NCBI RefSeq assembly: GCF_054482595.1
Contig: NZ_CM137008.1
Reading direction: 5' to 3' (one strand)
Length of the DNA stretch: 64,000 nt
Shown: in pieces, positions 58,612-64,000 of the stretch
Layout of the letters: the number at the start of each line of letters is the position of its first letter
How positions within the stretch are numbered: position 1 is the first letter of the stretch
Made by a program: the position numbers and the translations under genes
Notes under the pieces: model-generated
Told to the model about the DNA's origin: nothing
Database searches by the model: none
What the model saw: the letters and a program-made list of their open reading frames with translations, nothing else

Positions 58612-60180
58612 TTAGCGTGCCGGCTGAGTAGTCGTGGAAGACTGCTCAAAGTGATAGCGACCGGTTTTCAGGCTGCTTGGGCCGAGGCGTGCAAACTTGA
58701 ACATTAAGAACAATTCTGCCACCAGGAACAGGGTATACAGGCCGCAAATCAGCACCATTGAGAAGATGAGATCGCCTGCGGTCAGTGACGAGTTCGCCAC
58801 AGCTGTCGGCAGCACTTCACCGATAGCCCACGGTTGGCGGCCATATTCAGCCACGAACCAGCCCGCTTCTACAGCAATCCACGGCAGCGGAATACCGTAC
58901 AGCGCGGCGCGCAGGAGCCATTTTTTCTCGCCAATGCGGTTGCGGATGACACTCCAGAAAGAGAGCGCGATGATTGCCAGCAGCAGGAAGCCACACGCCA
59001 CCATGATACGGAACGCGAAGTACAGCGGCGCTACACGCGGAATGGAGTCTTTGGTTGCCTGTTGAATCTGCGCTTCAGTCGCATCAGCCACGTTTGGCGT
59101 ATAGCGTTTCAGCAGCAGACCGTAACCGAGGTCCTTCTTCATGCTATTGAACTGGTCACGAACCGCCTGGTCGGTAGAACCAGAACGCAGTTGTTCGAGC
59201 AGAGAGTACGCCTTCATCCCGTTACGAATGCGTTCTTCATGCTGCACCATCAGTTCTTTCAGGCCGATAACTGGAGTATCCACGGAACGCGTTGCAATGA
59301 TGCCCAGCGCGTAAGGGATCTGGATCGCAAATTTGTTCGTCTCCTCTTCCTGATCAGGAATGCCGAACAGAGTAAAGGCAGCAGGCGCAGGTTGCGTTTC
59401 CCACTCGGCTTCAATAGCAGCCAGTTTGGTTTTCTGCACGTCGCCCATTTCGTAGCCGGATTCATCACCCAGAACAATAACAGACAGAACGGCAGCCATA
59501 CCGAAGCTGGCAGCGATAGCAAAGGAGCGTTTAGCGAAGGCGAAGTCACGACCTTTCAGCATATACCATGCGCTGATACCGAGGATGAACATCGCGCCAG
59601 TAACATAACCAGACGCTACAGTGTGAACGAATTTCACCTGAGCAACCGGGTTAAGCACCAGCTCGGAGAAGCTCACCATCTCCATACGCATAGTTTCAAA
59701 GTTGAAATCGGACGCGATTGGGTTTTGCATCCAGCCGTTCGCAACCAGAATCCACAGTGCGGACAGGTTTGAACCGAGCGCCACCAGCCAGGTGACACAC
59801 ATATGCTGAACTTTACCCAGACGATCCCAACCGAAGAAGAACAGACCTACAAAGGTGGATTCGAGGAAGAAGGCCATCAGACCTTCGATTGCCAGCGGCG
59901 CACCGAAGATATCCCCTACATAGTGGGAATAGTAAGACCAGTTAGTCCCGAACTGGAACTCCATGGTCAGACCGGTAGCCACACCCAGAGCGAAGTTGAT
60001 ACCAAACAACTTGCCCCAGAACTTGGTCATATCTTTATAAATCTGTTTGCCGGAAAGGACGTAGACCGTTTCCATAATGGCCAGCAGGAACGCCATACCG
60101 AGCGTCAGTGGCACAAAAAGGAAGTGGTACATCGCGGTCAAGGCAAACTGTAAGCGCGACAGTTCGACTATATCTAACAT
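58612..60180 (-). CDS. cydA: Cytochrome bd-I ubiquinol oxidase subunit I
   Basis: 522 aa from [12 protein letters not shown]. Confidence 0.95.
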
Positions 60181-60517
60181 CATGACTCCTTGCTCATCGC
60201 ATGAAGACTCCGAGAGTGAACCCCGTTAGAAAGGGTCACACGCATGCCCCAATACAAAATTATTTGCTCGCCTCTATCGTTGCCATTTCATCTAAAGAGG
60301 AAAAGACAATGATAAAAAAGTTACAAATATGTTAATGAATAAACCAAATTGATCCCGTAATTATATTACGCCGCAAAATCCTTACAATAAACAGGTTTTT
60401 ATTGAGCAAATTTGCATTTTTCGACAGTGATCAATTTATAGCGAAATTGTCACGATCTCACCAATTTGATCTACGACAATTTATCGTGTTTTGCAGATTT
60501 TTTTCAAGAATTAAAAA

Positions 60518-60531
60518 TTGATTTATATCAA
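60518..60531. promoter_or_regulatory. FNR-type binding site in the cydAB promoter region
   Basis: TTGATTTATATCAA matches the FNR consensus TTGAT-N4-ATCAA within the AT-rich region upstream of cydA. Confidence 0.5.
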
Positions 60532-60985
60532 AACCAACCAAATATGTTAATTATGTATAAACCATAGATCATTGGTGATTTTATTGTTAATTTATTGTGA
60601 AATATTTATGCAACACAATTATTACAATGAAAAGGTATAGATAAAAAACCAGTATTTTATTTAACAGAACCGCCTTATCCACTTTTTATAATACCAATTG
60701 ATTAGAGTAGCCAATTTGTTGCTATTTTACATAACATATTTTTATCAAAGTTAATTGATTGTTGCCTTTATGAGCACCGACCGTAAGCCCGTTATGTTAT
60801 TGTTTCATTAGTAATAATCACTTAAATGTATCGATGAAACAGGTATGACTTACCGGGAGTGATTGTTTCTGAGTGAACAGAGGCCACTTTCGCCTGATAA
60901 ATGAAAAATGAGCGATTTTTGCAAGTTAGTTTTTCTATAGCCGAGTACGCTCAGCGCCTCGCTTGATTACAATGAGGTTGCTGCT

Positions 60986-61930
60986 ATGAGTCCTGATAAT
61001 ATCGGTTCGGCTGTCAATCGCTTCTCAGGTTGGCCATCTAATGATCCTCTAAAAACAGATGAAGAATCAATGACATCACCCGTGACTGTGCAGGTAATAA
61101 AGATGATTGCCGCCATCCTTGATCCACATCGGATAGTCGTTGGAATTGATACACTTTATACAACGCAGCGCGAAACATTTACCTCAGAGAGTCAACAGCT
61201 CATTGAATCAGCATTGCAAACACTTCATGTGATGAATTTAAATAACCTGGAAACAAATCGCGATGAAGAAGGTCACTATCTGGCTTTTGAATATAACGTT
61301 GACACCTCTGACAGAATAACCGTTTCTGCTTATAATGAAAAAAAACCTGGCTGCTATGGCCAATGTCTTGTAATACAGGATGACGAAACAAACTTATTTA
61401 ACCTGATAAAAATTAAAATTTTCGAAGCCAGGCATAATTATGTCGCTCAATTGATGAGCGATCCGGAATTTATGTTCAAATTTAGTTATAGCGCTCAACA
61501 AAATAGATTAGAACCTCATCTTCTGGTTCCCACTTATTTCCCTCTAAAAACAAACGAACCGGTTACGCAAGAGGATATACTGTTACTTTATCGTTTCTTT
61601 AAAATGGATGGTGATTTTAATATATTAACATCAGATGAATACATGAGTATCATGACACCTCTGATGAAGTGTGAGCGCAGCATCCACGACCACAACAGGT
61701 ATGTGACGGGCAAAGATACCCTTCTTCTGGACTATCCTCCTTCTGGTAACCAGATATATTTCCATATTTTTCCTGACGAATCAGCAACACTAGTCCTTTA
61801 TTTTTCAAACAATGACATTGAATGTTTCGTCTTTGAAAGAGATATTCCGAGCCAGTATCGCTTTTTCAAAATGTTTACCAATCTGGCACTGGTTATTGAT
61901 CAGTTAACCGATGCCAATCAAATACTTTAA
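60986..61930 (+). CDS. Hypothetical protein in AT-rich segment
   Basis: 314 aa ORF with visibly low GC; no recognised family. Confidence 0.4.
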   Translation: MSPDNIGSAVNRFSGWPSNDPLKTDEESMTSPVTVQVIKMIAAILDPHRIVVGIDTLYTTQRETFTSESQQLIESALQTLHVMNLNNLETNRDEEGHYLAFEYNVDTSDRITVSAYNEKKPGCYGQCLVIQDDETNLFNLIKIKIFEARHNYVAQLMSDPEFMFKFSYSAQQNRLEPHLLVPTYFPLKTNEPVTQEDILLLYRFFKMDGDFNILTSDEYMSIMTPLMKCERSIHDHNRYVTGKDTLLLDYPPSGNQIYFHIFPDESATLVLYFSNNDIECFVFERDIPSQYRFFKMFTNLALVIDQLTDANQIL

Positions 61931-62011
61931 TTTTCTATATATCCCCTATGGCAAATATTGCTAAACAATGCCTGGGGATTAATTTTTATTACTCACGGAA
62001 AGATTTAAATA

Positions 62012-62434
62012 ATGATACCATCTCAGATCTCTTTCAATACCCTTCCAGTCAATGCAACATACGCTTCAGAGACAACAGTTGACACACAAAAATTCTCTGA
62101 CATCCTCTACTCAGCGGGGTGTTCCCTAAAGGATATGGCTTATCTGAGCAGATGTCTGGCATCAATACACCCGACTCTCGCCAAAAACATTTATGAAACA
62201 GAAAATCTCAGCGATCAAAAATTACTGCATATTGATTGCCGTAGTACAAATGACATCAAGATAAATATCTTTTTTGGTCAACAACGAGAAGGATTAATTG
62301 AAATTAATTCTGACACAGTCATTTTTTCGATATTGTCTTCATTAATTGACTCCGCCATTTCTAAATTTCAACACCAAATCCCCGTTAACGGTTCAGTTAA
62401 TCGTGAACTATTGTATGAGGATTATACTGATTAA
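62012..62434 (+). CDS. Hypothetical protein in AT-rich segment
   Basis: 140 aa ORF, low GC, no recognised family. Confidence 0.4.
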   Translation: MIPSQISFNTLPVNATYASETTVDTQKFSDILYSAGCSLKDMAYLSRCLASIHPTLAKNIYETENLSDQKLLHIDCRSTNDIKINIFFGQQREGLIEINSDTVIFSILSSLIDSAISKFQHQIPVNGSVNRELLYEDYTD

Positions 62435-62981
62435 ATCCACCCTGTCGCGAAAAATGGCCTGCGTTATTGCCAGACGTAATAAAACCTTTGATTAACGTTA
62501 CTCATACTGATAGCACCTTCATGTACCTCTCTTTTTTACGAAAAATTAAAAGAGCTAACTAAGGTCATAATTCGCATGAATCATTAACCATTTGTTATTT
62601 TCAACATTATTTTTACATTAAGCAGAGATGAATTGCAGTGAAATTCGACTTAAATCTTATGAAATGCATTTACTCATGGCTAAAACCACGTCACAAAAAT
62701 GCAAATTAGAAGTAGATCACAATTATCTCAATACATTAAATCAAGTTAATTTTAAAAATTTAACACTCATGACATTAGTTGACATAACACACTGAATTAA
62801 CATGAGAATTTAAAAACATACTTTAAACAATCATTTCCCGAAAGACATTTTGAAAATAGATCAATTGCAACATTACGGTCAGATAAAGACACTCCTGTGA
62901 TATTAAACCTGTGCCGTTATGAACGGCCATAAATACGACGTGTGTAACTTATTTTACTCTCTGTCTTACAAAGGATTACCC

Positions 62982-63431
62982 ATGAAGAAAGCAACACTTG
63001 TGATTGGCGTTATTGGCGCGGACTGCCATGCAGTAGGCAATAAAGTTCTGGACCGCGTTTTTAGCAACCACGACTTCAGAGTCATTAATCTGGGCGTAAT
63101 GGTCAGCCAGGACGAATATATTGATGCGGCCATTGAAACTGGCGCTGACGCGATTGTCGTCTCCTCTATCTATGGGCATGGTGATATCGACTGTCTGGGC
63201 ATGCGCGAACGCTGCATCGAGCGTGGACTGGGGGACATCCTGCTCTATGTGGGCGGTAACCTGGTAGTCGGAAAACATGACTTCGCTGACGTGGAAACCA
63301 AATTCAAAGAGATGGGATTTGATCGCGTCTTTGCCCCAAGTCATGACTTAGAAGAGGTTTGTCAGCTGATGGCCCACGATATCAACCAACGTCATGACGT
63401 TGATACTCGTATTCTTGAAGAGGCTATCTGA
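62982..63431 (+). CDS. glmS: Glutamate mutase small (B12-binding) subunit
   Basis: B12-binding domain ([11 protein letters not shown]); start set at Met MKKATL after SD AAGGAT. Confidence 0.8.
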
Positions 63432-64000
63432 TGCAAATCGTCTCTGTCGATATTGGATCGACGTGGACCAAAGCAGCCCTCTTCACCCGGGAGGGGGACG
63501 CGTTAACGTTGGTTAACCACGTACTGACCCCAACCACCACCCATCATCTGGCGAAGGGGTTTTTCTCCAGCCTGAACCAGGTGTTAAACGTAGATAATGC
63601 CCTCCCCCTGTTAAACAGCGGTGAGGTTGCATTGAAGTATTCCTCCTCTGCCAAAGGTGGGCTGGCGGTTGCCGCAATGGGATTGGTGCCTTCTATCACC
63701 CTGGAAACCGCGAAAGTAACCGCTCACTCTGCGGGTGCTAAAATTGCGCAATATTACGCCTACAAGCTGAACCGCCGTGATATCCAGGCACTGGAAGAAA
63801 CGCAGCCCGATATTCTCTTGTTCACCGGCGGCACCGACGGCGGAGAAGAAAGCTACGGACTGAATAACGCCCGTGTGCTGGCAGAATCCAAACTCGACTG
63901 CGCCATTATTTATGCCGGAAACCGGGATATTCAGGACGAGGTGCAGGAGATCCTCGGGCATAAAGACCTGACCATCGTCGACAACGTTCTGCCCGATCTT
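63431..64000 (+). CDS. glmL: Glutamate mutase accessory protein MutL/GlmL-like (partial, runs off the window)
   Basis: ATG overlapping glmS stop; open frame to window end reading [18 protein letters not shown]... Confidence 0.6.
   Translation, partial: MQIVSVDIGSTWTKAALFTREGDALTLVNHVLTPTTTHHLAKGFFSSLNQVLNVDNALPLLNSGEVALKYSSSAKGGLAVAAMGLVPSITLETAKVTAHSAGAKIAQYYAYKLNRRDIQALEETQPDILLFTGGTDGGEESYGLNNARVLAESKLDCAIIYAGNRDIQDEVQEILGHKDLTIVDNVLPDL

Follow-up and report, generated by a model that had tools for sequence, protein, structure and literature searches.

The right end of the window, the 64,000-nucleotide stretch of Escherichia coli DNA analysed here, very probably holds the first two genes, glmS and glmL, of a complete methylaspartate-route operon that lies on an accessory island, would be controlled through a putative LysR-type box and occupies a cassette site between sucD and cydA. 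The gene cluster is the enterobacterial methylaspartate-pathway cluster already described by Kronen and Berg (2015); its annotation is correct, and the island is a known one. For a facultative gut bacterium such a cluster would mean a B12-dependent route from glutamate, which is abundant in the intestine, to pyruvate, acetate and ammonia. The enzymology has already been assigned step by step and offers nothing new. Regulation is the remaining question, to which the box and the LysR-type regulator are the entry point. The features of this end of the window are collected in Table 1.

Table 1. Features between cydA and the right end of the window
Feature	Start	End	Strand	Description	Models and structures
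cydA	58612	60180	-	cytochrome bd-I subunit I; left core gene of the variable interval; from the RefSeq annotation of an identical genome	
cydAB regulatory region, non-K-12 haplotype	60181	60620	-	perfect FNR consensus TTGATTTATATCAA at 60518-60531	
orphan gene 1	60986	61930	+	314 aa, GC 0.38; Escherichia-restricted; neighbour of the cluster, outside the pathway	
orphan gene 2	62012	62434	+	140 aa, GC 0.37; Escherichia and Shigella only	
AT-rich spacer, orphan gene 2 to glmS	62435	62981	+	GC 0.32; only the last ~170 bp alignable across genera	
conserved 21-bp box	62848	62868	+	TTTTGAAAATAGATCAATTGC; ends 114 bp before the glmS ATG; candidate LysR operator (inferred)	
putative weak sigma-70 promoter	62865	62893	+	-35 TTGCAA 62865-62870; 17-bp spacer; -10 GACACT 62888-62893	
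glmS	62982	63431	+	methylaspartate (glutamate) mutase subunit S, adenosylcobalamin-binding; 149 aa	NF002612, TIGR01501, PF02310, PDB 1I9C/1CCW
glmL (mutL), 5' part	63431	64000	+	first 190 of 462 codons; N-terminus VDIGSTWTK	TIGR01319, PF13941

Glutamate mutase genes at the end of the window

Judged by its sequence, the product of glmS is the S subunit of glutamate mutase and would take part in the adenosylcobalamin-dependent interconversion of glutamate and 3-methylaspartate. The open reading frame is preceded by AGGA (62972-62975), 6 bases 5' of its ATG. Its product scores 253.5 bits against NF002612 (cut-off 110) and 246.2 bits against TIGR01501 (cut-off 135.8), both of which are NCBIfam equivalog models for "methylaspartate mutase subunit S" with curated cut-offs, and the Pfam B12-binding domain (PF02310) is present. 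Residues 1-124 align without gaps to the sigma subunit of glutamate mutase from Clostridium cochlearium (PDB 1I9C/1CCW) with 61% identity and an E value of 1.3e-49. The segment G-A-D14-C-H16-A-V-G19 pairs with GSDCHAVG of 1I9C, and the DxHxxG motif, which supplies the histidine ligand to cobalt in the base-off/His-on form, is therefore kept at residues 14-19 (D14, H16, G19).

The B12-binding domain is common to several families, and weak matches link the protein to the methylmalonyl-CoA mutase type, to ornithine/lysine aminomutases and to corrinoid methyltransferase proteins. That it works with one of those enzymes is hardly credible, since their models reach 27-49 bits against cut-offs of 57-1500, as opposed to about 250 bits for the models of glutamate mutase S, and since the same operon carries glmE and mal downstream of glmS. 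A different B12-dependent mutase is thus refuted for GlmS by the HMM scores, by the operon partners glmE and mal and by the alignment to 1I9C.

The second gene, glmL, shares one base with the first, its ATG overlapping the TGA of glmS (ATCTGATG), and runs past the window end. The fragment of 190 residues scores 346.5 bits against TIGR01319 (cut-off 204) and matches the Pfam MutL family PF13941 with an E value of 1.3e-59; the full-length protein of E. coli XH990 (L001), where glmL is placed between glmS and glmE, scores 510.5 bits against NF040745 (cut-off 475). GlmL is presumed to be the accessory protein of glutamate mutase, with a role in its reactivation. The RefSeq annotation of an identical genome lists the same two genes. 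A first-pass annotation of the window, made from the letters alone, had named an S-subunit gene followed by the start of a MutL/GlmL-like gene; its coordinates are exact, and the HMM scores lie above the cut-offs.

The operon beyond the window and the encoded route

Genes to the right of base 64000 were read from the public E. coli XH990 chromosome and not from the window. Several complete E. coli chromosomes, XH990 included, match positions 60200-64000 of the window at 100% identity. In XH990 the gene order is glmS-glmL-glmE-mal-cmlA-cmlB-(GltP-like transporter)-fumD-cobO, followed by a LysR-type regulator on the opposite strand and then by sucD. GlmE scores 863 bits against TIGR01503 (cut-off 390), methylaspartate ammonia-lyase (mal) 544 bits against TIGR01502 and the class I fumarase (FumD) 1273 bits against NF011921; the latter two and CobO also exceed the curated cut-offs. 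An AtuA-family protein, a DUF4387 protein and a symporter of the SDF family (dicarboxylates and amino acids) are encoded as well. Among the first six genes the coding regions overlap by 1 and 4 bases or are separated by gaps of 3-18 bases, and the operon is ~11 kb long. The O157:H7 locus (L003) has the same arrangement, and the gene set of Kronen and Berg (glmS, glmL, glmE, mal, DUF1446, GltP-like transporter, fumD, cobA/cobO and LysR) is complete in both loci. Neither a two-subunit mesaconase MesAB nor a citramalate lyase of the CitDEF type is annotated between cydA and sucD in XH990.

The expectation of the first-pass annotation that a methylaspartate cluster continues off the right edge was borne out in XH990 by glmE, mal, cmlAB, the transporter, fumD, cobO and the LysR gene. 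It had proposed to look downstream for glmE and methylaspartate ammonia-lyase, and both come directly after glmL. The matches to TIGR01503 and TIGR01502, together with some 250 bits for the GlmS models, speak against the two outcomes that it had named as fatal, a lack of glmE and mal or an S subunit of another mutase. The comparison that it suggested with other genomes carrying the pathway gave the core glmS-glmL-glmE-mal-cmlA-cmlB-transporter in 7 of 7 non-Escherichia loci.

The encoded steps may be ordered as follows. Glutamate would be imported by the GltP-like symporter and rearranged to (2S,3S)-3-methylaspartate by glutamate mutase, in which GlmS would hold adenosylcobalamin via His16 and GlmE would be the catalytic subunit. 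Methylaspartate ammonia-lyase would convert methylaspartate to mesaconate and ammonia, FumD would add water to mesaconate to give (S)-citramalate, and CmlAB would cleave citramalate, so that pyruvate and acetate, besides ammonia, would be the end products of the cluster. E. coli does not synthesize B12 de novo, and the likely task of CobO is therefore the adenosylation of scavenged corrinoid.

Two of these steps deserve comment. FumD corresponds to ECs0757, which has been measured as a mesaconase and prefers mesaconate (PMC4682846). In the same 2015 study the DUF1446 gene after mal was left unexplained, and a citramalate lyase was looked for and not found. The AtuA/DUF1446 protein is about 92% identical to chain A of PDB 9ERQ/9EVF, which carries the name "Citramalate lyase, subunit A (cmlA)"; to chain B, "subunit B (cmlB)", the DUF4387 protein aligns over 104 residues with an E value of 5e-57. 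Activity of CmlAB is stated in a preprint (10.64898/2026.01.16.699985). The citramalate-cleaving step of the cluster is now assigned to CmlAB, on the basis of the PDB molecule names and of the usage in this one preprint. Because this assignment fills the once-missing citramalate step, the encoded route is complete.

The sucD-cydA interval as a cassette site

To the left of cydA, positions 1-58611 of the window are ordinary E. coli core genome, in the annotation of which nothing unusual appears. The order is rhlE, ybh genes, the moa operon with its Moco riboswitch, uvrB, bio, mod, gal, gpmA, aroG, ybgS, zitB, pnuC, nadA, a tRNA-Lys/Val array, tol-pal, ybgC and cyd.

In E. coli the interval between sucD and cydA is polymorphic and occurs in three forms, with mngRAB, with the glm island or with a TPR pseudogene. 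Among 5426 complete genomes, 3884 (72%), K-12 among them, carry mngRAB and 1138 (21%) carry the glm island, which is near full length in 1117 of them at 98-100% identity and partial in about 20 genomes. EcN-like strains have the TPR pseudogene only. On the sucD side the boundary is sharp: the three forms are identical through the sdhX sRNA and its terminator and diverge right after the T-run. A search with Rfam gathering thresholds returned nothing for sdhX downstream of sucD; the alignment is nonetheless identical to K-12 there. On the cydA side the boundary is diffuse and falls within the cyd regulatory region. No integrase, tRNA or repeat was found to mark the site (window 60181 to beyond 64000; L001 13982-28431; L002, L004 and L005).

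A derivative of E2348/69 (O127:H6; L004 4007-9283) carries a hybrid locus, in which orphan gene 1, orphan gene 2 and glmS are followed by ISEc13, a truncated mngA (a 5' fragment), mngR and sucD; mngB and the other genes of the glm operon are absent. This suggests that an ancestor with both cassettes underwent an IS-associated deletion, or that the two types recombined. In Citrobacter koseri (L008 4042-10450) a single sucD-cydA interval holds cydA, mngB, mngA, mngR and glmS, and since both cassettes coexist there, they are not inherently exclusive.

The two open reading frames between cydA and glmS are found together with the island in 1134 genomes of E. coli. The AT-rich genes noted at this place in the first-pass annotation are real, with GC contents well below the 0.49 of the window (Table 1). 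Neither has a match in Pfam, NCBIfam, PHROG or PADLOC. Orphan gene 1 falls into only 5 clusters among 5.8 billion proteins, and its AlphaFold model, built from an alignment of 4 sequences, has a pLDDT of 41.9 and is unusable. A copy of exactly the same length, with 65% identity, lies beside cydA in an Escherichia relative (L006) that has no glm genes. The dN/dS of the gene is 0.43, and its 65% identity is found where the cydA protein is nearly identical. Given the same-length copy in a genome without glm genes and this dN/dS, orphan gene 1 is a real gene that evolves fast and goes with the cydA side of the interval, not with the pathway. All named homologues of orphan gene 2 are from E. coli, Shigella or E. 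albertii.

Position beside cydAB

The ATG of glmS lies 2.8 kb from that of cydA (60180). Between them are the 805-bp cyd upstream region (GC 0.33), the two AT-rich open reading frames and an AT-rich spacer of 547 bp. The statement in the first-pass annotation that the glutamate mutase genes directly abut the cyd regulatory region is therefore overstated, as two genes and an upstream region of their own intervene.

In the cyd regulatory region, the bases 338-351 bp upstream of the cydA ATG match the FNR consensus perfectly (TTGATTTATATCAA); K-12, Citrobacter, Salmonella and Pseudescherichia conserve the site in the form TTGAT-N4-ATCAA. In E. coli this region exists as two deeply divergent haplotypes (window 60181-60620; L002 8900-9458). 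The haplotype of the window is common to O157, E2348/69, EcN and an Escherichia relative at 94-100% identity. Compared with that of K-12, it is only 77% identical in the 380 bp that precede the cydA ATG, a distance as large as that separating E. coli from Salmonella. Conserved across the haplotypes are the last ~75 bp and the blocks that resemble transcription-factor sites. K-12, the reference for all work on the cyd promoter, is the odd haplotype.

The cluster also occupies the sucD-cydA interval in Salmonella enterica, in Pseudescherichia vulneris and on an enterobacterial metagenome contig (L010); there, glmS and cydA are directly adjacent and divergent, with 0.85-1.2 kb between them. In Yersinia enterocolitica, Yokenella regensburgei and Morganella psychrotolerans the cluster is found outside this interval. 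It lies beside cbi/cob biosynthesis genes in Morganella and Yersinia and beside a TonB receptor and an ABC transporter in Yokenella (cobalamin-gene neighbourhoods: L011 7860-9545; L013 5121-9703; L014 1-9154). Outside the sucD-cydA interval, the recurrent linkage appears to be one of cofactor supply and not of oxygen control. The clusters differ also in content. A glutaminase gene is inserted between the transporter and fumD in Salmonella, Yokenella and the metagenome contig (L009 17799-18800; L013 17620-18633; L010 17632-18630). The E. coli cluster has no glutaminase gene, and that of Pseudescherichia vulneris (L012) lacks cobO.

The cydAB operon is itself one of low oxygen; ArcA activates it in opposition to H-NS, and FNR represses it in part (PMC3798270, PMC3688515). 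It could be supposed that the position is functional, the glm operon being under the same ArcA, FNR and H-NS control as the divergent cydAB, with both operons on at low oxygen. The presence of the cluster in this interval in four genera, the close divergent arrangement in Salmonella, P. vulneris and the metagenome contig, and the oxygen tolerance of glutamate mutase (PMC8473912) are consistent with such control; moreover, the K-12 cyd upstream region is a target of H-NS and ArcA (PMC3798270), and the DNA is AT-rich up to glmS. However, in the window cydA and glmS are separated by 2.8 kb and two genes, in Citrobacter koseri mngRAB intervenes, and the clusters of Yersinia, Yokenella and Morganella lie elsewhere, by cobalamin genes, under the same upstream box. 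In addition, the sole FNR-consensus site of the region is the one belonging to cyd. Co-regulation with cydAB is therefore very improbable.

We infer instead that the adjacency reflects an inherited gene order, or exchange through conserved flanks, at a cassette site shared by several Enterobacteriaceae, because Salmonella, Pseudescherichia and Citrobacter use the same interval and Yersinia, Yokenella and Morganella do not. The first-pass annotation had called the position notable for an anaerobic B12-dependent pathway. This did not hold up, as the place is a cassette site and glmS has its own upstream box and no FNR site nearby. Of the two routes of glutamate fermentation, it is the one through glutamate mutase that has the oxygen-tolerant radical enzyme (PMC8473912), and cytochrome bd-I, too, works at low oxygen (PMC3798270); an anaerobic pathway by cydAB is therefore hardly paradoxical.

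Upstream box and regulation of glmS

Within the alignable end of the spacer upstream of glmS lies a 21-bp box (TTTTGAAAATAGATCAATTGC) with the dyad TTGA-N7-TCAA (62850-62864). E. coli, Salmonella and Citrobacter koseri have the box in identical form; in Pseudescherichia vulneris and the metagenome contig it has 0-1 mismatches out of 21. Its core, ATCAATTG, is invariant in 8 of 8 genera, including the three in which the cluster lies elsewhere. It is unique in the 31.8-kb locus, where 0 copies are expected; no second copy was found in the island, for example 5' of the regulator gene or of fumD. Sites of LysR-type regulators typically have a T-N11-A arrangement, and the TTGA-N7-TCAA box, which contains this form, fits such a site.

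The box is followed by a putative weak sigma-70 promoter, from which a transcription start near 62900 is predicted. The pattern TTG(C/T)NN and (G/C)ACA(C/T)T recurs at the same 17-bp spacing in 7 of 8 aligned genera. A generic scan for sigma-70 promoters and terminators gave no more sites than in shuffled sequence, and none at the conserved box or promoter. Neither a cobalamin riboswitch nor any other Rfam family was detected in 60100-64000 at E <= 1.

FNR was considered as a regulator of glmS and rejected. The dyad has a spacing that exceeds the FNR/CRP geometry by one base, and glmS has no other FNR-like site nearby: with up to one mismatch allowed, TTGAT-N4-ATCAA occurs once in the cydA-glmS region, at the cyd site.

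The divergent LysR-type regulator of the island would be expected to switch the operon on via the conserved box. It is possible, although doubtful in this full form, that the box is the operator for LysR activation, in response to a gut signal, of an operon silenced by H-NS, with an extra tie to low oxygen where glmS and cydA are direct divergent neighbours. If true, silencing by H-NS and activation by LysR would account for the fact that expression of the pathway has never been seen in E. coli. The tie to low oxygen, if true, would act via the AT-rich intergenic region that the two genes share in those Enterobacteriaceae. A literature search by O157 locus tags (ECs0761 and similar, Z089x) gave no relevant matches, and a review of O-island regulators does not mention the LysR gene of the cluster.

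Distribution and maintenance in E. coli

Kronen and Berg reported the cluster in 26.5% of E. coli strains and in 90.6% of O157:H7 strains (PMC4682846), the latter an example of its enrichment in pathogenic lineages. In O157:H7, no methylaspartase activity and no glutamate-dependent anaerobic growth were detected under any condition tried, with or without cobalamins (PMC4682846). In view of this lack of expression and activity, one may ask whether E. coli carries the cluster along as a silent relic, which is never expressed and is decaying; the E2348/69 locus, which retains glmS alone beside an ISEc13 insertion, and the partial copies in about 20 genomes could be read in the same way.

There are several observations against decay. 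First, the dN/dS of glmS is 0.03-0.06 relative to the copies in O157, Salmonella and Citrobacter koseri, that is, both within E. coli and across genera; relative to the E2348/69 copy it is 0.14. Second, the cluster is intact at 98-100% identity in the 1117 genomes mentioned above, and the upstream box is conserved. Third, FumD (PMC4682846) and, according to the preprint, CmlAB are active when produced. Finally, methylaspartase activity is widespread among enterobacteria according to Kato and Asano, as cited in PMC4682846. A silent relic is therefore improbable, and the glm genes are maintained in E. coli, not decaying.

Comparison with known systems

The closest known system is the O157:H7 cluster (PMC4682846). 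It agrees in gene content, gene order and chromosomal site, its DNA is 99.1-99.2% identical, and there is no material difference. What has changed since 2015 is that the DUF1446 and DUF4387 genes, then unassigned, now correspond to proteins named citramalate lyase CmlAB in the PDB.

The mngRAB cassette of K-12, for mannosylglycerate, occupies the same interval and has an identical limit towards sucD, right behind the sdhX terminator, but its function is unrelated. The two cassettes are largely alternatives in E. coli and occur together in Citrobacter koseri.

The clostridial cluster, known from Clostridium tetanomorphum, C. cochlearium as well as C. tetani, shares the core glmS(mutS)-glmL(mutL)-glmE(mutE)-mal and the same chemistry up to citramalate. 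Clostridia use a two-subunit mesaconase, MesAB, a citrate-lyase-like citramalate lyase, CitDEF, and a GntR regulator (PMC4682846), whereas the E. coli cluster has a single-chain FumD and the unrelated CmlAB, and in addition a transporter, CobO and a LysR regulator. In the methylaspartate cycle of haloarchaea, mesaconate is converted to mesaconyl-CoA for the assimilation of acetate (PMC4682846). In contrast, the E. coli cluster has no CoA-transferase and no mesaconyl-CoA hydratase, and carries a mesaconase and a citramalate lyase in their place.
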